Of a stretch of 29,073 nt of DNA, positions 1 to 21,978 are shown piece after piece. The stretch comes from Alphaproteobacteria bacterium (GTDB taxonomy: Bacteria > Pseudomonadota > Alphaproteobacteria > Rhodospirillales > CAMCUA01). A program made the position numbers and the translations under genes. Each line of letters starts with the position of its first letter. The stretch's first letter is position 1. Under the pieces are notes generated by a model. The model made no database searches. It was not told the DNA's origin and was given only the letters and a program-made list of their open reading frames with translations. The stretch is taken from NCBI GenBank assembly GCA_963580965.1, contig CAUZNJ010000001.1:1-29073 (forward strand). The letters are read 5' to 3'.

Positions 1-1762
1 CTCTAAATCCACCCGGGCTGGGTTCGATCGATACAGGATCAGACTGCAATAGCTCGGCAGCCGCATCGCGGCCTTGAGCAAAGATGTCGCGGCAAGCAAA
101 AATGAGGGCCGACCCGCCCACGGTCAAGGAGCGCGACGCGCCCGTGCCATTGCCGGTTGCGACGCGGTCGGTATCGCCCTGGACGATGCTGACATCATCA
201 GCTGCACAGCATAGAGCCTCTGCCACGAGTTGGGCATAAACCGTCTCGTGTCCTTGGCCGTTTGACATCGTGCCAATCAACAACACAATCTGCCCGTCAT
301 CGCCAATCTGAATCGTCGCTTCTTCATCAACGTGCATACCGCACGCTTCGATCGTTGACGATAAGCCGATACCACGCAGCCGGCCCCGGCCAAGTGCCAA
401 ATCTCTCCGGGCAGAAAAGCCATCAAAATCAGCGAGCAGGCAGGCGCGGGCTAAATTAGCCTGAAAATTTCCCGTGTCGTAGATGACGCCGAGCGCATTA
501 GTATAAGGTAGTTTTTCAGCTGCAATCATGTTGCGCTGTCGTATCACGACCGGTGATATACCAAGCTCGCGCGCCGCCACGTCGACCAAACGTTCAATTA
601 TAAACATGACCTCCGGCTGTCCGGCACCCCGATAGGGTGCCGTCGGCACGGTATTGGTGAACATCGCGCAAACATCAATTTTGGCCGCCGGGATATCATA
701 AACGCCAGGCAACGTCCGTCCCCCGGCAATGGGCGAAACGAGTCCGCGTGGCGAAAAATAGGCGCCGAGGGCTGCAAAAGTAGAAACTCGCACCGCCTGA
801 AAGCGACCGTCCCCGTCAAAGGCCAGGGCCGCCGTTGACACCTGATCGCGTCCCTGGGCATCGCTGACCATCATCTCACTACGGCTGGCGATCCATTGCA
901 CCGGCCGGCCGGTGCGCCGGGCCGCCAATAAGACCAAAACCTGTTCTGGGTAGACATGGTTCTTAGCACCAAAACCGCCGCCGACATCCTCAGTGATGAC
1001 ATGGATGCGGTCTCCTTCCACACCAAGAATGGCTTCAGCAATGACCCGTTGCAGCAGGTGAGGCTTGCTTGCTGCCGCCCGTAAGGTCCAGCGGCCAGTA
1101 ACCGCATTCCAATCACCGGTATAAACACGCGGCTCCATTGGATTGGCTGCGAGCCTGTTATTGACGACGGAAATTTTGACCATATGGCCAGCTTCGGCAA
1201 AGGCCTTATCGACAGCCTCGCCATCACCCTTGTGAAAGCGAAAATAGACGTTTCCGGGATACCCAGGCCACAGCAACGGCGCACCATCGGCCGCCGCCGT
1301 ATCCGGAGCGGTGACGCTGAGCAGAGTTTCGTATCCGATATCGACCAACTCAGCCGCGTCCTGCGCCTGGGCCACAGTATCGGCAACAACGAAGGCCAGC
1401 GGTTCGCCAAGGTATCTTGCTGTGCCCCGTGCTAAAACAGGCTGCAACGGCACGTTTGCACGCTCATCAGCGTTTGGAGGCGGCAGTTCCCATGGGATGA
1501 GGCCAAGCGCTGCGATCTCGGGATCGTCGGCGCCAAGGACGGCTATAACGCCGGGCGCCAAAACCGCCGCTGATGTATCGATGCCAGTAATGCGGGCATG
1601 GGCGACAGGCGATCTTATAACAATCCCATGAGCCAGCCCCGGCGGGTTCCAATCGGCTACGTAACGGCCCCGCCCTGTCAGCAGGCGAACATCCTCTCGG
1701 CGGCTACCAAGGCCCGTCGAGACATCAGCAGAAAAGGTTTTCCTTGGTGTTTCGTCGTTCAT
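1..1762 (-). CDS. Xanthine dehydrogenase / CoxL(form II)-like molybdopterin-binding large subunit, partial (3' end runs off the left edge)
   Basis: Translated by hand from ATG at 1762; 587 codons with no stop (codons 1762 down to 2). Motifs: RREDVRLLTGRGRY, RSPVAHARI, VGGGFGAK, APYRGAGQPE, GQGHET, QGDTD. Absent from the ORF track because it has no stop inside the window. Confidence 0.93.
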   Translation of the reverse strand, partial: MNDETPRKTFSADVSTGLGSRREDVRLLTGRGRYVADWNPPGLAHGIVIRSPVAHARITGIDTSAAVLAPGVIAVLGADDPEIAALGLIPWELPPPNADERANVPLQPVLARGTARYLGEPLAFVVADTVAQAQDAAELVDIGYETLLSVTAPDTAAADGAPLLWPGYPGNVYFRFHKGDGEAVDKAFAEAGHMVKISVVNNRLAANPMEPRVYTGDWNAVTGRWTLRAAASKPHLLQRVIAEAILGVEGDRIHVITEDVGGGFGAKNHVYPEQVLVLLAARRTGRPVQWIASRSEMMVSDAQGRDQVSTAALAFDGDGRFQAVRVSTFAALGAYFSPRGLVSPIAGGRTLPGVYDIPAAKIDVCAMFTNTVPTAPYRGAGQPEVMFIIERLVDVAARELGISPVVIRQRNMIAAEKLPYTNALGVIYDTGNFQANLARACLLADFDGFSARRDLALGRGRLRGIGLSSTIEACGMHVDEEATIQIGDDGQIVLLIGTMSNGQGHETVYAQLVAEALCCAADDVSIVQGDTDRVATGNGTGASRSLTVGGSALIFACRDIFAQGRDAAAELLQSDPVSIEPSPGGFR

Positions 1763-1807: not shown

Positions 1808-1835
1808 TTGACAGGGTACATATTGTGATCAGAAT
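1808..1835 (+). promoter_or_regulatory. Putative sigma70 promoter of the six-gene operon
   Basis: Perfect TTGACA at 1808-1813, 16-nt spacer, CAGAAT at 1830-1835, inside the 117-bp divergent intergenic region. Confidence 0.45.
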
Positions 1836-1879: not shown

Positions 1880-3040
1880 GTGCCAACAATTGCCGCCGTT
1901 GAGACCATCCTTGTCCAACTTCCAACCCGGCGCGAACATCGGTGGACCGGCCTGACAGAGCCCATTGGTCGATATCTTCTGATCCGCGCCGTTGATAGTG
2001 ATGGGCGTGTTGGATGGGGTGAAGCACCTGCCCTAAAGGATTGGGGCGGCGAGTTTGGCCGCTATTTTGGCGAATCACCCCAGATCGCCCGAACCGTTAT
2101 CGAAAATTATCTAGTGCCCGCCGTTATCGGCGTCGAGCTTGGAAATATTTCTGAACTACACGCCCGTATGGACGCCATCATCAAAGGCTATCCTTACTCC
2201 AAGGCGGCGGTTGAATTTGCCGTTTACGATCTGACCGGACGGTGGCTCGATGTTCCTGTTCATACCCTACTCGGCGGACGGGCGCGCAACACGGTACCAG
2301 TCACCCATTCCATCGGCCTCATACCCATCGAGGACGCGGAACGCGAAGCTGCCCAGGTCGCCGCCGAAGGCATACGCACAATTAAGATAAAAATTGGAAT
2401 CGACCCCAAGCGCGATGTCGATATCGTCCGCGTCGTGCGCAGCGCCGCAGGCGATGATGTCGATATCTGCGTCGATGCCAATGAAGGTTACGAGACGCCG
2501 GGCCAAGCTATCAACGTGGTTCGCCAGATCGAAAAATATCGCATCAAGTATGTCGAACAGCCCGTCATGGGTATCGAGCGGCTAGCTGAGGTTGCGCGCG
2601 CCATCGACCCGCCGGTGATGGCCGACGAATCAGCCTGGAATAGTCACGACGTCATTCAAATAATCGAGCACCGTGCAGCCCAAATCGTCTCCATTTATAC
2701 GACCAAGCCAGGCGGTCTATACAAGGCCATGGAGGTCGGTGCGACGTGCCGGGCCGCCGGCATCATCTGCAATGTTAACGGATCGGTGGAAACTGGCGTC
2801 GGCAATCTCGCTAACATCCATCTCGCAGCAGCCGCCCCGGCAGTGACGCTATCTTGCGTAGTGCCAGTTTCGACACCCGCCGAATATCTCGGCGGGAGAA
2901 TCGGCGGTATCTATTACCGCGACGATCTAATCAAACAGCCGATGAAGCTGGTCGATGGCCATATAGAAGTACCGACAGGGCCCGGCATGGGCATTGAGGT
3001 CGACTTGAGCAAAATTGAAACCTATCGCGTGCGTGACTGA
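1880..3040 (+). CDS. Enolase-superfamily enzyme, muconate cycloisomerase (MLE)-like, non-canonical active site
   Basis: GTG start with upstream AAGGA. GWGE capping-domain motif, KxK (K169/K171), metal ligands in DANE, EQP and DES. Strand-6 motif is IYTTKPGG. Confidence 0.9.
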   Translation: MPTIAAVETILVQLPTRREHRWTGLTEPIGRYLLIRAVDSDGRVGWGEAPALKDWGGEFGRYFGESPQIARTVIENYLVPAVIGVELGNISELHARMDAIIKGYPYSKAAVEFAVYDLTGRWLDVPVHTLLGGRARNTVPVTHSIGLIPIEDAEREAAQVAAEGIRTIKIKIGIDPKRDVDIVRVVRSAAGDDVDICVDANEGYETPGQAINVVRQIEKYRIKYVEQPVMGIERLAEVARAIDPPVMADESAWNSHDVIQIIEHRAAQIVSIYTTKPGGLYKAMEVGATCRAAGIICNVNGSVETGVGNLANIHLAAAAPAVTLSCVVPVSTPAEYLGGRIGGIYYRDDLIKQPMKLVDGHIEVPTGPGMGIEVDLSKIETYRVRD

Positions 3041-3069
3041 TCCATCGCTACGTTTAACGGAGTGCGTTT

Positions 3070-4206
3070 ATGCGCAAAGAGATCGTCAGGCGTCAGGTCG
3101 CCGCGATGGCCGAACATGGCCTAGACGCCATCGTTTGTTGCTCACCTGAGAATTTTGCGTATACGGCGGGATTTGTCGTTCCTTCTCAACCACTGATCCG
3201 CCACCGCCATGCCATGACCATCGTTGATGCCAATGGTCAAACAGCTGTAGTCGGCGTTGATATGGAAGCGACGACTATCACCGGCAGACTGCCCGAAGTC
3301 AGAAGCCGCATATGGCGGGAGTTCTCCGACGATGCCATGGCGGTACTCGCCGACTTCCTGACGGAACTTGGTCTCGCACAGGCGCGCATTGGCATTGAGA
3401 TGGACTATTTGCCAGCCGGGGATTGCGCCCGATTGGCGGCTGCCCTTCCGTCGGCGCACTTAAAACCTTGCGAAAGCATCTTGGCCGGCCTACGCCAAAT
3501 CAAGACACCGGACGAAATCACTCTCCTCCGCCGGCTGTCCCGGATCGCCGATCAGGCCATCACCGACGCTCTCAGTGCCGTCAAGGCCGGCGATACGGAA
3601 TTAGATATTGCTGGCCATATGACCCAGCATTTGTACACACTCGGCGCCGAGAACTTCAAGTTGATGATCGTTGCCACCGGCGAACGCAGTCAGTTTCCTA
3701 ACGTCGGTCCGTCGGAGCGAAAATTGCGGCGCGGCGATGTTTGCCGGGTCGAAATATTCTCGGTTATTGGTGGCTATCAAGCTGGCGTCTGCCGGACGGC
3801 GGTCGTACAGGAGGCCCCACCGCATGCTGAACGCATCTGGCAGCATCTTGTCGACTGCAAATACCGAATCATGGAGATGGTAAAGCCAGGTGCCAGTTGT
3901 CTCGTTATCTACAATGCCTTCATCGCCCAACTAGCAGAGATGGACCTGCCGCCCATCTCCTTCGTTGGCCACGGCATTGGCTTGCATCTACACGAGGATC
4001 CTTATCTCGGCGAAACGCCAATCCTCGGACAGCCCGGTAGCGACGCGATGCTGGAGGCCGGTATGGTACTTGGTTTTGAACCTCTGTGTTACCGCACCGG
4101 TTACGGCTTCGGCATGCAAAACAAGGACATGTTATTGGTCACCGGCGGCGGTTCAGAACTGCTGTCGGATTACGCCAATACCGACCAGCTTCTGGTGGTC
4201 GAATGA
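3070..4206 (+). CDS. M24 (creatinase/prolidase, pita-bread fold) family hydrolase, probably metal-independent
   Basis: Creatinase-like N domain (SPENFAYTAGF), LRQIKTPDEI, GHGIGLHLHE, GFEP. Several metal-ligand positions are substituted. Confidence 0.88.
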   Translation: MRKEIVRRQVAAMAEHGLDAIVCCSPENFAYTAGFVVPSQPLIRHRHAMTIVDANGQTAVVGVDMEATTITGRLPEVRSRIWREFSDDAMAVLADFLTELGLAQARIGIEMDYLPAGDCARLAAALPSAHLKPCESILAGLRQIKTPDEITLLRRLSRIADQAITDALSAVKAGDTELDIAGHMTQHLYTLGAENFKLMIVATGERSQFPNVGPSERKLRRGDVCRVEIFSVIGGYQAGVCRTAVVQEAPPHAERIWQHLVDCKYRIMEMVKPGASCLVIYNAFIAQLAEMDLPPISFVGHGIGLHLHEDPYLGETPILGQPGSDAMLEAGMVLGFEPLCYRTGYGFGMQNKDMLLVTGGGSELLSDYANTDQLLVVE

Positions 4207-4222
4207 AGCACAGAGCATACCA

Positions 4223-5305
4223 ATGAAAGTTACGATCCTCGGCGGTGGTAGCGGGGGGGCGGCATCCGCCGTGGAGCTAACCCTCGCCGGCCACGAGGTC
4301 TGCCTATGGAGCCGAGCAGCGGAAACACTCGATCCATTTCGTACTGCTGGTGGTATTGCTTACGATGGCGTCCTCGGCGACGGCACTGTGCCGGTACGCC
4401 TTACGAATGACATGACAATAGCCATACAGGGGGCGGAAGCCGCCGTCGTCGCACTGCCTACCTATGCACATAACGCCGTGGCGCGTGCCCTGTCCGCCGC
4501 CCAATGGCCGGAAGACCGGCCAGTGATTCTCAATCCGGGACACACGGGCGGCGCAATGGAATTCACAACTTCCTATCAGCGGACCGGCGCCACGGCCCCG
4601 CCAATTGCAGCGTTCTCGACTTTGACCTACGTAGCACGAAAATATAGCCCTAAACGCGTCACCATCAGCGGCCACGCCAAGGCCGTGCGCATGGCTTCTC
4701 TGCCCAGGGCCGAGGCCGCCATGGTTGTCGGTGCGGCATTGTTTTCCTCCGCCCAGCCCGTTGCTGACGTGCTAGCCGCAGACCTCGCAAACGTCAATAT
4801 GGTCCTGCACCCACCCGGCGCAGTTCTGGCTGCCGCCTGGGTCGAAGCGCGCGACGGCGATTTTTCCTTCTATGTTGATGCCATGACCCCCGGTGTCGCC
4901 CGGGTCATGCGCCAACTCGACGATGAACGCCGCGCCGTTGCCCGTTCCTTTGGCCATGATTTACCCAATCTAATCGCGGAAATGCAACGCATCGGTACGG
5001 TCGAGTCGAATATCACAGACACCAATGATTTCCCCGCCGCAATCGCTACCGGAGAGGCCAATCGCCATATCAAAGGTCCAGATTCCCTGTGCCATCGTTA
5101 CTATCGGGAAGATTTCGGCCACGGGCTACTGCCTTTCCTCGAACTGGCCGCCATCGCCGGGGTTGCAACGCCAACTGCGCAATCACTATTCACACTGGGT
5201 GCAGCGCTGTCCGGAAATGATTATCATAAGGGCGGACGTACCGCCGAGGCCATGGGCATCGCCGGCCTGAACAAAGAACAATTACTACAACGGGTGAAAA
5301 ACTAA
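4223..5305 (+). CDS. NAD(P)-dependent opine (octopine/nopaline; N-carboxyalkyl-amino-acid) dehydrogenase family protein
   Basis: Start moved to ATG 4223 (MKVTILGGGSGG, Rossmann motif); the 3965 ORF start overlaps the M24 gene. Family motifs: NVNMVLHP, TPGVARVMRQLDDERRAVA, HRYYREDFGHGLLP. Confidence 0.88.
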   Translation: MKVTILGGGSGGAASAVELTLAGHEVCLWSRAAETLDPFRTAGGIAYDGVLGDGTVPVRLTNDMTIAIQGAEAAVVALPTYAHNAVARALSAAQWPEDRPVILNPGHTGGAMEFTTSYQRTGATAPPIAAFSTLTYVARKYSPKRVTISGHAKAVRMASLPRAEAAMVVGAALFSSAQPVADVLAADLANVNMVLHPPGAVLAAAWVEARDGDFSFYVDAMTPGVARVMRQLDDERRAVARSFGHDLPNLIAEMQRIGTVESNITDTNDFPAAIATGEANRHIKGPDSLCHRYYREDFGHGLLPFLELAAIAGVATPTAQSLFTLGAALSGNDYHKGGRTAEAMGIAGLNKEQLLQRVKN

Positions 5306-6195
5306 TGAAGTGGGAAGAAAGAACGATCGCTATCGTCGCCGGCGACCGGCGAGAACAGGAAATCGCCCGCTGCGTTGCTGCCACTGGCGCCGATGTACGC
5401 GCCTATGGGTTTCCATGGCCTGATGAGGGCATTAATGGCGTGACCCACGCCCCTTCCGCCGCCGCCGCCCTGGCTGGCGCCGAAATCGCCTTATTTCCCA
5501 TTCCCGGCATTGCACCGGACGGTGCTCTATTCGCACCTTTATGCAATGAACGGATCATCCCCAACCGCGTCATGCTGTCGGCCATGAAACCCAATCCTAA
5601 TATTATTCTCGGCTGGCCCGACGCCAAGCTAAAGGCCTTATGCGAGGAATTGTCGATTAAATATCACGAATACGAGGCCGACCGCGGTTTAATGCTGCTG
5701 CGCGGGCCCGCCATCGTCGAAGGCATGCTTCAAGTCATCATCGAAAATACCGACATCACCATCCACAAGGCCAATATTGTTATGGTTGGTTATGGCACCA
5801 TCGGCGAGCTATCGGCGCGGACCCTCGTGACGCTCGGCGCCAACGTCACAGTGGCCGCTCGAAACCCGGTGCAACGAGCCGCCGCCTATGCCACTGGAGC
5901 CGAGACGATGGAATTATCCGGCCTCGACGACATCCTTCCCGGAACCGACATCCTGATCAATAGCGTTCCAGTGCAACTTGTGACCCGAGCGATGCTAGAA
6001 AAAATGCCGAAACACGCCCTTCTCGTCGATCTAGCGGCGCCGCCGGGCGGCATTAATCGAGATGCCGCCGAGGCACTGGGCCTGCGCTTCGTTTGGGCCC
6101 GCGGCCTTGGGTCGCGCGCGCCAGTCACGGTAGGGCGCAGCCAATGGACGGGTATTCGTCCGCGCATCGAGAAGATTTTTGAGAACTACGCCTGA
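5305..6195 (+). CDS. Dipicolinate synthase subunit A (SpoVFA/DpaA)-like NAD(P)-binding oxidoreductase
   Basis: IAIVAGDRREQEI vs Bacillus IAVIGGDARQLEI; AIVEGML..TDITIH vs PTVEGTI..TDYTIH; GYGTIG Rossmann motif; LGANVTVAAR; VDLAAPPGG vs LDLASRPGG (Bacillus motifs recalled from memory). TAATG overlap with the upstream gene. Confidence 0.8.
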   Translation: MKWEERTIAIVAGDRREQEIARCVAATGADVRAYGFPWPDEGINGVTHAPSAAAALAGAEIALFPIPGIAPDGALFAPLCNERIIPNRVMLSAMKPNPNIILGWPDAKLKALCEELSIKYHEYEADRGLMLLRGPAIVEGMLQVIIENTDITIHKANIVMVGYGTIGELSARTLVTLGANVTVAARNPVQRAAAYATGAETMELSGLDDILPGTDILINSVPVQLVTRAMLEKMPKHALLVDLAAPPGGINRDAAEALGLRFVWARGLGSRAPVTVGRSQWTGIRPRIEKIFENYA

Positions 6196-6248
6196 ACCAG
6201 GCGCTTATAAATCGAGCTTTAATCGGACGATAGCAAAGGAGAAAAATC

Positions 6249-6443
6249 ATGCCGTTCGTCGTCGTTGAAATGTGGGAAGGCCGAACCGTTGACCAAAAGC
6301 GTAATCTTGTGAAAGCAATCACCGACGCCATGGTCGAGCACGCCGCCTGCAAATCTGAGCACCTGCACGTCGTCATTCACGATACCCCGAAAAATAGCTG
6401 GGGCCGCAACGGAAAACTCGGCATCGATATGGAGGAAAACTGA
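6249..6443 (+). CDS. 4-oxalocrotonate tautomerase-family protein
   Basis: 64 aa, Pro-1 after Met removal, EGRT..QKR motif (Arg-11), strong AAGGAG RBS. Confidence 0.9.
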   Translation: MPFVVVEMWEGRTVDQKRNLVKAITDAMVEHAACKSEHLHVVIHDTPKNSWGRNGKLGIDMEEN

Positions 6444-6444
6444 T

Positions 6445-6825
6445 ATGGCCGAAACATCAGAGCAACCCCGTCCCGTAGCATTTGGCCACATATTGCTTAG
6501 AGTCGACGATATCGAACGCTCCGTGAATTTCTACGTCGACGGCGTCGGCTTTACTATCCGCCCTGCCAAACCCCTGGCCGACGGCCGCGCCTTCACCGCC
6601 TTCCACCATGGATTTTCCCTGATTGCTGGTAAGGATAAAGCCCATCAACAGATCGATCATATTGCCTTTGAGGTTGATAATGTACGCGCCCTGAGCGAAC
6701 GCCTAAAGGCGCGTGGTACGCATTTTCAGGAAGAACTACACGACGGCCCCTACGGCCTAACGATCTACGTCTCCGACCCTGACAACAACCGCATTGAACT
6801 GTATCAGGTGGGGCTTAAGGCTTAG
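6445..6825 (+). CDS. VOC (glyoxalase/bleomycin-resistance/extradiol dioxygenase) family protein
   Basis: GHILLRVDDIERSVNFY..GF, DHIAFEVD, DPDNNRIEL; starts 1 nt after the upstream stop. Confidence 0.88.
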   Translation: MAETSEQPRPVAFGHILLRVDDIERSVNFYVDGVGFTIRPAKPLADGRAFTAFHHGFSLIAGKDKAHQQIDHIAFEVDNVRALSERLKARGTHFQEELHDGPYGLTIYVSDPDNNRIELYQVGLKA

Positions 6826-6924: not shown

Positions 6925-6970
6925 AATAAAAAATCAACGGCCTAGCTGTTTTCAGCTAAGCCGTTGATTT
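6925..6970 (-). terminator. Rho-independent terminator of tRNA-Lys; the hairpin may also stop the convergent operon
   Basis: Inverted repeat 6931-6948 / 6953-6970: 18-bp stem, perfect apart from one U-G pair on the minus-strand transcript, 4-nt loop, followed by UUUUUUAUU. Confidence 0.75.
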
Positions 6971-6973
6971 AAA

Positions 6974-7049
6974 TGGTGGGCCCGACGGGGTTCGAACCCA
7001 TGACCCTCTGATTAAAAGTCAGATGCTCTACCAACTGAGCTACAGGCCC
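6974..7049 (-). tRNA. tRNA-Lys (UUU), 76 nt, CCA encoded
   Basis: Minus strand reads GGGCCTGTAGCTCAGTTGGTAGAGCATCTGACTTTTAATCAGAGGGTCATGGGTTCGAACCCCGTCGGGCCCACCA. Acceptor stem pairs, GTTCGAA T loop, CTTTTAA anticodon loop. Confidence 0.97.
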
Positions 7050-14608: not shown

Positions 14609-15508
14609 TCACCCCCGCCCCAAAGCCGCCTTGATCTGCACCGGAATATCCTTCAGATCGGCAGCAATACGAACACCGGATTGGCTCAGCATCTTCTTCT
14701 TTTCCGTCGGGCCATCGCCTTCGCCAGCAATGAAAGCGGCTGCGTGGCCGAAGCTAACGCCCACCGGCTGATTTTCCTGGAAGGTACCGGCGATGAGAGC
14801 AACGACCGGCTTCTTTACGCCATTGGCGCGCAAGTGTTCCGCAACCTCCCGTTCGTTGGGGGTGCCGGGTTCGCCAAACAATGCGATGGCCTTAGTCATC
14901 GGGTCATCCTCAAACATGCGGACGTAGTCGACCATACGCCGCCCGGTAATAGCGTCACCGCCCATGGCGACCGCAGTAGAAACTCCAAGACCGCCTTTCT
15001 TTAAAGCCCAGGCGACCTCCGCCACCATGCCCCCGGAGCGTGAGCAGATACCGACGGTTCCAGGTGCGTAAATCTCATCAGGATCGAGCCCCCCCATGCC
15101 ACCCATGCGCGCCTCACCGGGCGTGATGATGCCTACCGTGTTGAAGCCAACCATCACAGCGTCAGTTTTGCGCACGGCATCGACAACCTTGGCTGCGTCG
15201 TTGAGTGGCACCAATTCAGCTGGCGCAACGATCAAATGGATACCGGCAACCAGCGCTTCGAGAACCGCATCCTTGGCAGCTAGCGCCGGGACATAGACAA
15301 GACTAGCTTCCGCGCCATGTTGCTCAACCGCTTCGCGCACCGTGTCATAAACCGGGATTCCTTCGACGTCCTGACCGCCACGCCCCGGCGTCACGCCAGC
15401 AACAATGTGAGTACCATAATCGCGGCAGACCAGCGTATCCACGCGAGCCTGGGTGCCGGTAATCCCCTGGACGACAACGCGGGTGTTTTTCTCAAGAAGG
15501 ATGCTCAT
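14609..15508 (-). CDS. Succinyl-CoA synthetase alpha-like subunit of a divergent ADP-forming acyl-CoA ligase
   Basis: MSILL...RVVVQGITG, AGVTPGRGG, SRSGG, GGD, FGEPG, phospho-His motif FGHAAA (canonical MGHAGA), GFNTVG (canonical GPNCPG). Confidence 0.88.
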   Translation of the reverse strand: MSILLEKNTRVVVQGITGTQARVDTLVCRDYGTHIVAGVTPGRGGQDVEGIPVYDTVREAVEQHGAEASLVYVPALAAKDAVLEALVAGIHLIVAPAELVPLNDAAKVVDAVRKTDAVMVGFNTVGIITPGEARMGGMGGLDPDEIYAPGTVGICSRSGGMVAEVAWALKKGGLGVSTAVAMGGDAITGRRMVDYVRMFEDDPMTKAIALFGEPGTPNEREVAEHLRANGVKKPVVALIAGTFQENQPVGVSFGHAAAFIAGEGDGPTEKKKMLSQSGVRIAADLKDIPVQIKAALGRG

Positions 15509-16710
15509 TGCGTTACCCCCGTGCGGGTCAGGTCAACGATCAAACGGCAAGCGTCCTCCAGTGGCGTACCTGACGGCAGATAGTGGACCCCAGGCACCAT
15601 GGCAGCAGCTTCGCGCGCTTCAGCCTCGCGCGGACCGAACATACGAATGACGACGGGAAATTTGGCGTAGTCGATGCCCCGTTCGGCCAGCACCTGCATT
15701 ATCGGCTCAACCTTGCGGTCAGCACGGGTCATCTGCAAGTGGTTGGCGCTAATCAGCAAGCCACGGATGTTAGGGTTGTCAAGAACAGCGTGGGCCAGCG
15801 CCTTGATCTTATCCTGATTGATACCATTCATGTCCGAATGGTTGGCGGGCCGCCCTCCCATGGCGAGGATAAGATCATGCTGTAACAGCCCTGCACCGCC
15901 TCCGTTGAAGATCAGGCCGATATCGCCGTCGAGCTCGCTATAGCGAATCATCCCGCCGCGGTACCTCTGATTGGCAGCGAAAACCGCTCGTTCCCGTTCG
16001 TTGAGATTGCGACCGGCAAACATCCATTCGGGCTTAGCCTCGTCGGCAAGCCAGCTTGCCTGACGGCCCAGCGCGTCATCGTCAATGCCAACCATGGCAC
16101 CAACGAGTGACAGCTTCCCGTCTGTTTGGACGCAAAGGGGGTTTATCTCGAGCATCAACGCATCAGCGGTCTGAAAGGCGGTAAACAGGGAAGCAGTCAC
16201 CGCGCCCAATCTGGGCAGAATTTCACCATTAACGCCGGCAGATTTCCAGGCAGAAACGGCATCCCATGGGTTCAGGCCCTCAGTCGGATCGAGATCGATG
16301 ACGGTTATTGCATCAGGATTGGTCGCCTGGGTCTGTTCGATGTCGATACCGCCATGGCAGCTGAGTAGCAGCCGGGGCGGAAAACTTTCTAGATTGATAC
16401 TGAGATAGTATTCAGCAGCTATTTCGACCCTAGTTTCGACGTAAACCTCGTCCACACGATGGCCCTGCACGTCCGTTCCGAGCAAAGAATGGGCCGCCTC
16501 GGCCGCAGCCTCCGGAGAATTCACCACACGTACGCCGCCCGAAATTCCACGCCGCCCGGTTGGCACCAAAGCCTTGACGACGGCACTACCACCGAAACGG
16601 GCCGCAGCCTCAGCAGCTGCTCCGGGGGTTACCACCACAACACCATCCGGCACTGGAAATCCTTGGCGACGCAGCCAAACTTTTGCTTTATCTTCCGTCA
16701 GAGGCAGCAT
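15505..16710 (-). CDS. Succinyl-CoA synthetase beta-like subunit of a divergent ADP-forming acyl-CoA ligase
   Basis: ATP-grasp motifs VVKALVPTGRRGISGGV, EYYLSI, GGIDIE, LEINPL; ligase domain GDIGLIFNGGGAG, GGRPAN; ATGA overlap with the alpha subunit. Confidence 0.88.
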   Translation of the reverse strand: MLPLTEDKAKVWLRRQGFPVPDGVVVVTPGAAAEAAARFGGSAVVKALVPTGRRGISGGVRVVNSPEAAAEAAHSLLGTDVQGHRVDEVYVETRVEIAAEYYLSINLESFPPRLLLSCHGGIDIEQTQATNPDAITVIDLDPTEGLNPWDAVSAWKSAGVNGEILPRLGAVTASLFTAFQTADALMLEINPLCVQTDGKLSLVGAMVGIDDDALGRQASWLADEAKPEWMFAGRNLNERERAVFAANQRYRGGMIRYSELDGDIGLIFNGGGAGLLQHDLILAMGGRPANHSDMNGINQDKIKALAHAVLDNPNIRGLLISANHLQMTRADRKVEPIMQVLAERGIDYAKFPVVIRMFGPREAEAREAAAMVPGVHYLPSGTPLEDACRLIVDLTRTGVTQ

Positions 16711-16719
16711 GAATTTGCT

Positions 16720-17160
16720 TTAAACTCCTCGCAGGATGCCAGTGGCAGAACCGGCAAGAACAGTCACGCCATCCTGGTTATCGCAGCCAATTTCCAGGGC
16801 GAATTTCACGCCGTCGTCTAAATCTTCGCGTTCCGCAACAACGGCCCAGGGAGTGATAACGTCGTCCTCCAGCACCATACGAATGAACTTGGTTTCAATG
16901 GTGCCTCGGCTTAGCCAACCCGTACCGAATAGATCGAGCATCATCTGGATGACGTAACCTTGCCACTGGGTGCCCGAGGCATTGCGCTTCTTCAAGCCGC
17001 AACTTTCGGCATGGGCGAGGTCGGTATGGATATTGACCAGTGGCCAGCCGTCCATCTCAAACGGACCGCCAGAAAAGGCACGCATACGCGCCGGCGATAA
17101 CCGATAGTCTCGGCCACGCATCTCTGCGCCCGGCTGACTGGCAGTAGTCAGGTCAGTCAT
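16720..17160 (-). CDS. MaoC-like hotdog-fold acyl-CoA dehydratase subunit
   Basis: NIHTDLAHAESCGL..RNASG resembles the MaoC hydratase motif; KFIRMV..DDVITP and C-terminal beta strands. Confidence 0.72.
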   Translation of the reverse strand: MTDLTTASQPGAEMRGRDYRLSPARMRAFSGGPFEMDGWPLVNIHTDLAHAESCGLKKRNASGTQWQGYVIQMMLDLFGTGWLSRGTIETKFIRMVLEDDVITPWAVVAEREDLDDGVKFALEIGCDNQDGVTVLAGSATGILRGV

Positions 17161-17591
17161 GCCTCCCCACCCTTGATGTGAGTGTTGTGGCTAAAACGGC
17201 GAAAAATATCCCGGCCATCCTCGTCAATTACACGGCAGTCAATAACCATGAAGTCCCGTCCGCGCCTTTTATAGCGTTCGCAGACCGTCCAAGTAACGTT
17301 GAGCTTTTTGCCGACATAGGCCGGGCTGATAAATTCAATAATATCCTTAGCATGCAGGACGCTATGGCCCTCGGGCATGTAGAAAGAAGGGCTACGTGTG
17401 CGGTTGGACATGTTAAGGATCAGAGCCGGGTGAACGAGTGGCGGGTCGCCACTATCGCCCTGCCTGTAACGGGAGTCGTAGTCTTCCTCAGCGTAGCAAT
17501 ACTGCTCGTTGAGATCCGGTGTGACGTGAAAGCTGTAGGGCGCGTAAGACTCACCAACCGCCAAGTCGGTCGCCACTTTGCGTTCGCTCAT
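17157..17591 (-). CDS. Hotdog-fold (MaoC N-terminal/HadA-like) protein
   Basis: LAVGE, PPLVHPAL, VLHA...EFISPAYVG, ERY.RRGR.FMVI..RVIDEDG. ATG 17591 chosen over TTG 17630; ATGA overlap with the next gene. Confidence 0.7.
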   Translation of the reverse strand: MSERKVATDLAVGESYAPYSFHVTPDLNEQYCYAEEDYDSRYRQGDSGDPPLVHPALILNMSNRTRSPSFYMPEGHSVLHAKDIIEFISPAYVGKKLNVTWTVCERYKRRGRDFMVIDCRVIDEDGRDIFRRFSHNTHIKGGEA

Positions 17592-17675
17592 AATCGCTAC
17601 CGCTGATGCGCACTGACGAAGCAGTGACAAAAATAGAAGCAGCCGGATCCCATTGGAATTCTGACTGTAGGCAAC

Positions 17676-20763: not shown

Positions 20764-21978
20764 ATGATATCCGTCACCGAAGCCATCGCGAAGGTCACTG
20801 CCGGCGTCACCCTATTGCCGTCGGAACAGGTATCGCTGACAGACGCACTTGGCCGGGTTTTGGCCCGTGACGTCGCCTCCCGGATCACACAGCCGTTCGC
20901 CGATGTCTCCGCGATGGACGGCTACGCCGTTCGTGCTGCGGATGTTGCAGCCGTTCCCGCAAACCTGATACGGATCGGCGAATCTGCTGCTGGTCGTAGC
21001 TTCCACGGCCGTGTAGGTGCGGGCCAAGCAGTTCGTATCTTCACCGGTGCGCCAGTTCCAGATGGCGCTGACACCATCGTCATTCAAGAAGATACCAAGG
21101 CGAGCGGCGATGCCATCACGGTCAACAAAGGCGTACCGGTAGGCCGCTATATTCGCTGCGCCGGCATGGACTTTTCTGAGGGCCAAGTGCTGCTGAAAGC
21201 CGGCCAAATTCTGACGGCACGTGACATAGGCATGGCCGCCGCCATGAATGTACCTTGGTTGACCGTGCGCCGCCGGCCGCGAGTAGCCATCCTCGCCACC
21301 GGCGACGAGATCGTGATGCCGGGGGATCCTCTAGGCCCTAACCAGATTCTCAGTTCTAACAGCATCGCGCTTGGAGCTTACGTTAGGGTTCTAGGCGGCC
21401 AGCCAATCGATCTCGGTATAGCACAGGATACGGAAGATTCCCTGCGCACACTGGCAGCCGGTGTCCGCGGCGCCGACATGCTGGTCACCATCGGCGGTGC
21501 CTCGGTCGGCGATCATGACTTGGTCCGCAAAGTGCTGGGCAGCGAGGGCCTAAAGATCGACTTCTACACCATCGCCATGCGACCGGGTAAACCGCTGATC
21601 TTTGGACACCTAAACGGCGTTGCGATGCTCGGTCTGCCGGGCAATCCGGTCTCCGCCGGCGTTTGTTCAGTGGTCTACCTTCGCCCAGCTCTCCGCGTCA
21701 TGCTGGGGCTACCCATCATCGACGCGACCACGCAAATAGCCCACCTTGGCCGCGATGTCGGCAAAAATGACATTCGTGAAGACTACCTGCGAGGGACCAT
21801 CACACGCGATGATGCCGGAAACCTCATAGCGACACCGTTCGAGCGCCAGGACAGCAACCTGATGGCACTATTCAGCCAAGCCGACTGCCTGATCATTCGG
21901 CCGCCGTTCGCCCCACTGGCAAGAAAAGGTGATACCGCACATATCCTTCCACTGGACATTGGCTCCGTCTCCCTTTGA
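20764..21978 (+). CDS. moeA: Molybdopterin molybdenumtransferase
   Basis: SAMDGYAV, IFTGAPVPDGAD, TGDE, GGASVGDHD, MRPGKP, LPGNPVS. Confidence 0.95.
   Translation: MISVTEAIAKVTAGVTLLPSEQVSLTDALGRVLARDVASRITQPFADVSAMDGYAVRAADVAAVPANLIRIGESAAGRSFHGRVGAGQAVRIFTGAPVPDGADTIVIQEDTKASGDAITVNKGVPVGRYIRCAGMDFSEGQVLLKAGQILTARDIGMAAAMNVPWLTVRRRPRVAILATGDEIVMPGDPLGPNQILSSNSIALGAYVRVLGGQPIDLGIAQDTEDSLRTLAAGVRGADMLVTIGGASVGDHDLVRKVLGSEGLKIDFYTIAMRPGKPLIFGHLNGVAMLGLPGNPVSAGVCSVVYLRPALRVMLGLPIIDATTQIAHLGRDVGKNDIREDYLRGTITRDDAGNLIATPFERQDSNLMALFSQADCLIIRPPFAPLARKGDTAHILPLDIGSVSL

Follow-up and report, generated by a model that had tools for sequence, protein, structure and literature searches.

The window analyzed here is a 29,073-nt stretch (positions 1 to 29,073 of contig CAUZNJ010000001.1, assembly GCA_963580965.1) from a metagenome-assembled genome (MAG) of an alphaproteobacterium, and the subject of this report is a run of six plus-strand open reading frames (ORFs) at 1880–6825. 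Pfam and NCBIfam assign their products, from gene 1 to gene 6, to the MLE-type, M24, opine dehydrogenase (ODH), DpaA-like, 4-oxalocrotonate tautomerase (4-OT) and VOC families, the same six that had been named in an initial annotation made from the DNA alone. The consecutive gaps of 29, 16, −1, 53, and 1 nt that it gave for these co-directional genes agree exactly with the ORF listing, and the six genes are a real operon (Table 1). They do not amount to a self-contained pathway, however: the operon is a shortened version of a bigger, modular cluster that usually has 11–15 genes, and the exact six-gene order was seen at no locus other than the window and L001, its 81% relative.

Table 1. Features of the six-gene operon and its borders (coordinates are those of the window)
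Feature	Position	Strand	Remarks
CoxL-type molybdenum hydroxylase large subunit	2..1762	-	Pfam Ald_Xan_dh_C, MoCoBD_1, MoCoBD_2
Sigma-70-like promoter candidate TTGACA-16-CAGAAT	1808..1835	+	10/12 match, 45 nt 5′ of first start codon
MLE-subgroup enolase-superfamily enzyme, Tyr type	1880..3040	+	386 aa; Pfam MR_MLE_N+C
Creatinase_N + M24 (pita-bread) hydrolase	3070..4206	+	378 aa; PF01321 4.2e-15, PF00557 6.3e-36
Opine dehydrogenase family NAD(P) oxidoreductase (ODH)	4223..5305	+	360 aa; Pfam Octopine_DH (PF02317) 2.5e-34
DpaA/SpoVFA-like two-domain NAD(P)-binding protein	5305..6195	+	296 aa; DpaA_N 1.4e-20 + Rossmann domain
4-oxalocrotonate-tautomerase-family protein	6249..6443	+	64 aa; Pfam Tautomerase (PF01361) 9.1e-18
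Single-domain VOC (glyoxalase/dioxygenase-fold) protein	6445..6825	+	126 aa; Pfam Glyoxalase 9.5e-19
GC-rich 18-bp hairpin, A/T runs both sides	6931..6970		105 nt past last stop
tRNA-Lys(UUU)	6974..7049	-	Abuts hairpin; right border of operon region

DpaA-like proteins with 57–85% identity to that of the window occur in many Alpha- and Betaproteobacteria, and in annotated Variovorax and Bradyrhizobium contexts a larger conserved cluster surrounds them. We mapped 18 reference proteins onto 80 loci seeded with the DpaA-like protein and 80 seeded with the MLE-type protein. The gene set co-clusters in ~160 loci (>150) from Alpha- and Betaproteobacteria, plus MAGs labeled as other phyla, so the expectation of the initial annotation that these homologs belong together in other genomes is borne out from both seeds. 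The M24 gene lies directly 3′ of the MLE gene in 78 of the 80 MLE-seeded loci, and a sample of 400 other genomes from across the phylum gave no DpaA-like match at E ≤ 1e-40. The genes are thus uncommon and unevenly distributed, and where they occur they are inherited together to a high degree.

A long form of the cluster is present at 57 of the 80 DpaA-seeded loci, with the order MLE–M24–aminohydrolase (479 aa)–[D-amino-acid dehydrogenase]–ODH–DpaA-like–cyclic amidohydrolase (448 aa)–unknown (226 aa)–tautomerase–isochorismatase::VOC, the VOC domain being fused behind the isochorismatase domain. To these it adds a GntR/FCD–RidA–CobW group and an NMT1-type ABC importer. The remaining 23 loci, the relatives of the window included, have a short form in which the DpaA-like, tautomerase, and VOC genes are contiguous in 22 cases and the MLE–M24 pair lies within the fetched stretch in 11. 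A CoxL-like gene accompanies 14 of the 23 (with CoxM, CoxS, or CoxG too where checked), carboxylate-type transporters (TctC or TctABC) are frequent, and other genes often present encode an Amidohydro_2 decarboxylase, an alpha/beta hydrolase, a split thiamine-pyrophosphate (TPP) enzyme, or a CocE/S15 hydrolase. ODH adjoins the DpaA-like gene in 54 of 57 long loci and in only 5 of 23 short ones. Two sub-modules can thus be told apart, one of MLE(Tyr)–M24, to which ODH is added in some cases, and one of (ODH/)DpaA-like–tautomerase–VOC. Cultured carriers are Variovorax sp. HW608, Bradyrhizobium liaoningense, and Aminobacter aminovorans for the long form, with Cucumibacter marinus and Nitratireductor pacificus as marine examples, and Siccirubricoccus phaeus for the short form. 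The regulators and transporters that travel with the genes, a point that the initial annotation had raised, are GntR/FCD proteins and importers of the NMT1-type ABC and TctC/TctABC kinds in these neighborhood loci.

Several of the accessory genes deserve a brief description. In short-form relatives both close and distant (L096:4343–11876 and L092:11562–15667), DpaA-like–tautomerase–VOC is followed by a CocE/NonD (S15) hydrolase and a split TPP enzyme, which may represent further accessory steps; in L096 a DDE transposase gene precedes them, and MetE-like and CysK-like genes accompany them. The 226-aa long-cluster protein (L015:12231–12911) has no Pfam or NCBIfam match, and its model is confident (pLDDT 88). 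A role for it as an Fe/2-oxoglutarate-dependent oxygenase equivalent to the molybdenum (Mo) hydroxylase was considered and rejected, as the PhyH-like match is weak (E 1.7e-4, TM ~0.4) and a conserved HxD...H motif is lacking. Elsewhere in the window's own genome, an ortholog of the 479-aa aminohydrolase (78% identity) lies on contig C81 (1485–2915) beside a TPP enzyme, with a TGA at the edge of the match; the 230-aa and 243-aa ORFs beside it are not the 226-aa protein. RidA is present on C65 (4306–4749, 63% identity), and a second, N-terminally incomplete VOC copy, 85% identical to the window VOC, lies beside an ammonium transporter gene on C66 (7990–8265). This MAG, which is 79% complete, gave no match for the genes of the hydantoinase-type and 226-aa proteins or for the isochorismatase domain.

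The presence of the ODH and DpaA-like genes varies. Among 31 loci with MLE, M24, tautomerase, and VOC genes in view, the long ones include 19 with both ODH and DpaA-like and one with DpaA-like only; the short ones include three with both, five with DpaA-like only, and three with ODH only. The last three (L173:5266–9369, L180:5449–9623, and L182:10001–13988) have the order MLE–M24–ODH–tautomerase–VOC, which is the window operon minus its DpaA-like gene; they come from betaproteobacterial MAGs and have a CoxL-like gene nearby. ODH and the DpaA-like protein are each dispensable, and on the simplest reading they perform the same kind of NAD(P)-linked step, at the same or at successive C–N centers.

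The MLE-subgroup enzyme retains the strand-2 motif and the metal ligands of its family. K169-I-K171 on strand 2 preserves the KxK motif (TIK[IV]K[IV]G in 57 of 57 orthologs), and the Mg2+ ligands D199, E226, and D249 on strands 3, 4, and 5 are conserved and align with the ligands of 3i4k and 2p88. The same KxK, D/E/D ligands, and barrel are found in muconate cycloisomerase (3i4k, 1muc), N-succinylamino-acid racemase (2p88, 1sja), Ala-Glu epimerase (1jpm), and cis-3-hydroxy-L-proline dehydratase. The difference lies at strand 6, where alignments to 3i4k, 2p88, and 3my9 place Tyr273 (in SIYTTKPGG) at the position of the catalytic Lys (alKttK in 3i4k and niKlmK in 2p88). All 59 orthologs have the motif SIYTTK[PAS]GG with this Tyr. 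An exhaustive search gave 123 representatives, out of the 150 best, that could be aligned at the strand-6 position; 51 of the 123 have the Tyr, including every one with an identity of 39% or more. The residue is thus no one-off but the mark of a large uncharacterized clade. To our knowledge none of the PDB-matched characterized MLE-subgroup members, in contrast to this whole clade, has Tyr in place of the strand-6 Lys. The protein fails every curated equivalog cut-off; its best NCBIfam match, the muconate cycloisomerase model TIGR02534, scores 237.8 bits against a cut-off of 334.95.

The M24 hydrolase resembles prolidase (1pv9, 5cdl), creatinase (1chm), and the ectoine hydrolase DoeA in its Creatinase_N + M24 fold, and it retains His301 and Glu338. 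At the ligand positions D209/D220/H284/E313/E327 of prolidase 1pv9 it has E228/G241/H301/E338/K352, so that three of five positions differ (D209 to E228, D220 to G241, and E327 to K352), two of them non-conservatively, and this set is conserved in ~60 orthologs. Conserved changes of this kind exclude a canonical dinuclear metal site; creatinase is a metal-free member of the M24 family. The active-site alterations that the initial annotation had pointed out are therefore genuine for both this protein and the MLE-type enzyme. The hydrolase falls far under all curated cut-offs, and it is predicted to hydrolyze a C–N bond (amide, lactam, or amidine).

The pairing of these two proteins extends beyond the cluster. 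In Acetobacteraceae (L123:16479–21157; also L167 and L183) a second tight operon, ODH′–M24′–MLE′, encodes products with 36, 32, and 47% identity to those of the window, again with the strand-6 Tyr and with an M24 site that departs from the canonical set in its own way (E,T,H,P,E). It sits a few kb from the main cluster, behind TctABC, and an extra divergent ODH paralog is also present. A 43% identical MLE(Tyr) (P0131) lies in the order GntR–ODH–TAXI-TRAP–MLE(Tyr)–FMN_red–M24, a 40% identical one in IclR–MLE–HyuA–HyuB–SBP_bac_5, and a 46% identical one next to genes for an M19 dipeptidase and an ABC ATPase of the oligopeptide type. Among the members of the HyuAB family are the ATP-dependent lactamases 5-oxoprolinase, caprolactamase, and N-methylhydantoinase (PMC8453981). 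An amide or lactam hydrolase (M24, M19, or HyuAB) is thus the usual companion of the Tyr-type MLE, with ODH added in several contexts, and carboxylate or peptide/opine-type importers stand alongside these paralogous contexts. Partnership with an amide hydrolase is a trait that the window enzyme shares with dipeptide epimerases and racemases.

The start of the ODH gene at 4223 agrees with the N-terminus of its orthologs (MKVTILGGG), and its stop codon shares 1 nt (5305) with the start of the DpaA-like gene. A PDB sequence search gives N-(1-D-carboxyethyl)-L-norvaline dehydrogenase (CENDH, 1bg6) as the nearest structure (E 1.7e-46, residues 4–351), and the protein combines an N-terminal Rossmann domain (GGGSGG N-terminus) with the helical Octopine_DH domain. 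H196, R292, and D297 are invariant across 64 orthologs, and they are candidate counterparts of Pecten octopine dehydrogenase His212, Arg324, and Asp329 (the catalytic His-Asp pair and the substrate Arg), judged from the invariance and the common R-x4-D spacing. The protein is like CENDH and octopine dehydrogenase (3c7a) in its fold and may be so in its His/Arg/Asp set; unlike known opine dehydrogenases, its gene is translationally coupled to a DpaA-like gene and lies among genes for hydrolases and an enolase-superfamily enzyme.

The DpaA-like protein matches 3d4o and 2rir over residues 5–278 of its 296, and its model (pLDDT 87) has TM scores of 0.68–0.80 and 25–28% identity to DpaA, with transhydrogenase dI/AlaDH as the next matches. 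It scores under both curated DpaA cut-offs (NF006162, DpsA, 204.7 against 261; TIGR02853, 179.9 against 319.65). It shares with Bacillus DpaA/SpoVFA (2rir, 3d4o) the two-domain fold, DpaA_N, and the GxGxxG Rossmann domain, and differs in that it has no DpaB partner and no sporulation context, belongs to a catabolic cluster, and is replaceable by an opine dehydrogenase. The initial annotation had noted the lack of the usual partner, and this holds in the 79%-complete window genome (G000), where DpaB (TIGR02852) has no match; mapping of genes at the fetched loci likewise showed none, though no query aimed at DpaB was run there. The tautomerase has M1-P2 (the catalytic Pro1) and R12 invariant across 80 orthologs and exceeds the NF002571 cut-off (59.9 against 55). 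In the VOC protein H15, H72, and E118 (and H99, Y103, and Y108) are likewise invariant across 80 orthologs, and the first three are presumably the His/His/Glu metal ligands, judged by position after FosA/GloA. In contrast to the MLE-type and M24 proteins, the other four thus look intact. PDB sequence searches gave no structure close enough for a substrate to be transferred.

The CoxL-type gene that diverges from the operon is interrupted by the contig end, with 587 aa seen; its full-length ortholog in L096 has 817 aa, and the nearest matches of that protein are CoxL, quinoline 2-oxidoreductase, and 6-hydroxypseudooxynicotine dehydrogenase. A CoxL-like gene lies within 5 kb upstream of the MLE gene in 18 of 69 loci. 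The Mo hydroxylases near the cluster variants belong to different subfamilies, either CoxL/quinoline-oxidoreductase-like or XDH-like with a fused Fe-S domain; complete CoxS/L/M/G sets are known from the loci for two different subfamilies, and sometimes two hydroxylases occur together with an Amidohydro_2 decarboxylase. Given these differing subfamilies and the presence near MLE in only 18 of 69 loci, Mo hydroxylases are to be regarded as accessory feeders and not as core enzymes, and the CoxL-type protein of the window is likely such a feeder. A gene for MoeA (molybdopterin molybdenumtransferase) is present at 20764–21978, 14 kb from the CoxL-like gene, and so the contig itself carries the cofactor pathway for the Mo hydroxylase.

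The host is a seawater bacterium. A 5.3-kb stretch is almost complete in at least 14 seawater or estuary metagenomes (2019–2025) and partial in six seawater metatranscriptomes. Four seawater RNA libraries yield contigs with 99% identity or more that together cover all six genes, and these contigs bridge the DpaA-like/tautomerase (6158–6320) and tautomerase/VOC (6211–6641) junctions, which fits transcription in situ as one unit.

Our leading interpretation, which we hold tentatively, is that the operon is catabolic and acts on a secondary-amine or cyclic imino-acid core that bears one or more carboxylates; with the same reserve, the candidate substrate classes are an opine-like N-(carboxyalkyl) amino acid, a cyclic imino (di)carboxylate, or a lactam of one of these. 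In the scheme that we envisage, the M24 protein would hydrolyze a C–N bond, opening a lactam or amidine ring or removing an N-acyl or carbamoyl group. The Tyr-type MLE would then abstract the alpha-proton beside a carboxylate with a single Lys base, resulting in epimerization or in beta-elimination/cycloisomerization. ODH and/or the DpaA-like protein might next oxidize the C–N bond to an imine with NAD(P)+, or reduce an imine. The Pro1 tautomerase could interconvert imine and enamine, or keto and enol forms, with hydrolysis releasing a 2-oxo acid and an amine or ammonia, and the metal-dependent VOC protein may isomerize or cleave the carbon product. An N-heteroaromatic acid probably enters this route by way of the divergent Mo hydroxylase, and in the long clusters the deaminase, hydantoinase-type, and isochorismatase-type hydrolases would feed it from a nitrogen-richer ring. 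Imino-acid or secondary-amine chemistry, as put forward in the initial annotation, gains indirect support from the ODH/DpaA-like interchange and the recurring MLE(Tyr)–hydrolase pair, and the substrates named there stay guesses. That annotation had also allowed that the operon either degrades or builds such a compound; degradation is favored over synthesis only by the gene context of the neighborhood loci, with its GntR/FCD regulators, RidA, and importers.

Several points weigh against this interpretation. No homolog with a known substrate exceeds ~30% identity, the order of the steps and the redox direction are our inference, and the roles given to the tautomerase and VOC proteins are its weakest part. 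The 29,073-nt window contains no regulator or transporter for the operon. The depth in the RNA libraries is low and similar to that of coaD and gyrA, with the CoxL gene barely covered, and DNA carry-over may account for the signal. Finally, the Mo hydroxylases and the deaminase, cyclic amidohydrolase, and isochorismatase of the long form fit an aromatic or ureide ring at least equally well.

This last point leads to the main competitor, in which an N-heteroaromatic carboxylic acid (resembling a pyridine, pyrazine, pyrimidine, or purine) is broken down reductively; it is possible and in our judgment somewhat less probable than the catabolism of an imino or secondary-amine compound. Here the Mo hydroxylase or, in long clusters, the aminohydrolase would generate an oxo/lactam compound, and the DpaA-like protein and/or ODH would reduce the ring with NAD(P)H, in the reverse of the DpaA direction; the tautomerase would shift the enamide, the M24 or hydantoinase-type enzyme would open the ring, and MLE and VOC would finish the carbon chain. 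The two proposals overlap if the ring first becomes an N-substituted amino acid. Ring reduction is suggested by the CoxL-type gene divergent from the operon and frequent at short loci, by the complete hydroxylase sets described above, and by the long clusters with their deaminase-, allantoinase/hydantoinase-, and RutB/BiuH-type hydrolases, RidA, and NMT1-type ABC importer; the known substrate of DpaA, moreover, is a dihydropyridine dicarboxylate. Yet most long loci lack the hydroxylase and its types are not orthologous to one another, the complete replacement of the DpaA-like protein by ODH is hard to fit with reduction of an aromatic ring, the Tyr-type MLE–hydrolase pair, with or without ODH, is also found where no hydroxylase or ring hydrolase accompanies it, and the known nicotinate, dipicolinate, and homarine pathways use other genes. 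The least credible proposal is that the operon is biosynthetic and, with ODH and the DpaA-like protein working reductively, makes an opine-type metallophore, a dipicolinate-like chelator, or an osmolyte. Opine dehydrogenases are biosynthetic in staphylopine-type pathways and DpaA serves dipicolinate synthesis, but the neighborhood loci have no nicotianamine-synthase-like gene, ligase, or exporter and the 79%-complete genome has no DpaB, the conserved partners are importers (ABC, TctABC, and TRAP), GntR/FCD repressor-type regulators, RidA, and hydrolases, and the distribution is patchy, as for accessory catabolic islands.

It is also very improbable, if a shade less so than biosynthesis, that the operon is a characterized pathway hidden by poor annotation (dip, hom, pic, reductive nicotinate, or creatinine/N-methylhydantoin). 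Points of likeness to the N-heterocyclic-acid routes (dip, pic, hom, and Hnr/enamidase) are the Mo hydroxylase, the GntR/FadR-type control, and the carboxylate transporters around some cluster variants, and the GntR/FadR-type regulator and some host taxa (Caldimonas, Acetobacteraceae, and Bordetella-labeled MAGs) overlap with those reported for dip. The dipicolinate (dip) cluster of Alcaligenes faecalis JQ135, which depends on a monooxygenase, DipD, works without a Mo cofactor, and has the DipR box GTATAC in all its types (PMC11472048), is nevertheless rejected, with very little probability left to it, on account of its operator, its Mo independence, and its monooxygenase chemistry, a distinction made from its description and not from the dipA–dipM gene list. 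Of the 25 short loci searched, the window included, 23 have no GTATAC in their promoter regions (between the regulator and DpaA-like genes or upstream of the operons), and its few occurrences lie elsewhere. The proteobacterial reductive nicotinate route (6-hydroxynicotinate to THON) shares the logic of hydroxylation and reduction followed by hydrolytic ring opening, but in Bradyrhizobiaceae and Azorhizobium it uses an Hnr-homolog cluster (PMC3511419). The homarine operon homABCDER encodes HomA (FAD), HomB (TgnB-like), HomC (peptidase), and HomD (aldehyde dehydrogenase) (PMC13236597), and none of the HomA–HomD families is in the window operon; the enzymes described for the hom and nicotinate routes include no DpaA-like, ODH, or MLE family. 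The creatinine route (creatinine deaminase, N-methylhydantoinase, and N-carbamoylsarcosine amidase) has its three enzyme types represented in the long cluster, as an aminohydrolase, a cyclic amidohydrolase, and an isochorismatase-family amidase, beside a creatinase-like protein. These extra hydrolases score far under the curated cut-offs of the creatinine-route enzymes, and the route fits only the long-form extra genes; the window has no deaminase, hydantoinase, or isochorismatase, and MLE, ODH, DpaA-like, tautomerase, and VOC would be left unexplained. As for picolinate (pic), we know of no enzyme of that route from the DpaA-like, ODH, or MLE families. The initial annotation had held that the operon matches no known pathway, and in keeping with this there is no one-to-one match with dip (by its description), hom, reductive nicotinate, or creatinine degradation, exact-protein look-ups gave no hit, and our literature searches found no paper that names this gene combination.

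If the imino-acid interpretation is carried further, the cluster could represent an undescribed pathway by which ocean and soil bacteria use natural imino-dicarboxylates or opines, with a DpaA-like protein isofunctional with an opine dehydrogenase and a Tyr-for-Lys clade that carries out a new reaction; taken as a whole we regard this more specific version as unlikely. The DpaA-like protein would then be a stand-alone NAD(P)-dependent cyclic amine/imine oxidoreductase, and candidate substrates would be algal piperidine-2,6- or pyrrolidine-2,5-dicarboxylates, invertebrate opines, or their lactams. What is new here is the marine short variant, the ODH/DpaA-like interchange, the MLE(Tyr)–hydrolase–ODH trio, the breadth of the Tyr clade, the argued rejection of the dip, hom, and nicotinate routes, and the RNA-library signal. 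The either/or use of ODH and DpaA-like and the recurrence of that trio narrow the chemistry enough for a focused substrate screen. The gene set is present in at least ~240 bacterial species, among them soil rhizobia, Variovorax, freshwater Burkholderiales, and seawater Alphaproteobacteria; identification of the substrate would show a further way in which dissolved organic nitrogen is turned over and give a first function to non-sporulation DpaA homologs, to the Tyr-type MLE clade, and to the M24 family that lacks the metal site.

The initial annotation placed the six genes behind one promoter and ahead of a terminator by the tRNA gene. The hairpin beside tRNA-Lys is present, and it is likely a two-way terminator common to the operon and tRNA-Lys. 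The site at 1808–1835 is a plausible candidate promoter, and a promoter scan gave four sigma-70-like sites against 3.9 in shuffled sequences, which is no enrichment. A block CATATTG(T/C)GATC..AATA.G.CAT.AT, present at 1819–1846 in the window and at ~5270–5300 in the 81% relative L001, overlaps the candidate −10 region and may be an operator for some regulator. Beyond tRNA-Lys only housekeeping genes are found (CoaD, GyrA, Cu-ATPase, TrpD/C, MoeA, GltX, GltA, and LpxB/I). A four-gene minus-strand set at 14609–17630 comprises two hotdog-fold genes and genes for SucCD-like subunits, the families being those given in the initial annotation.

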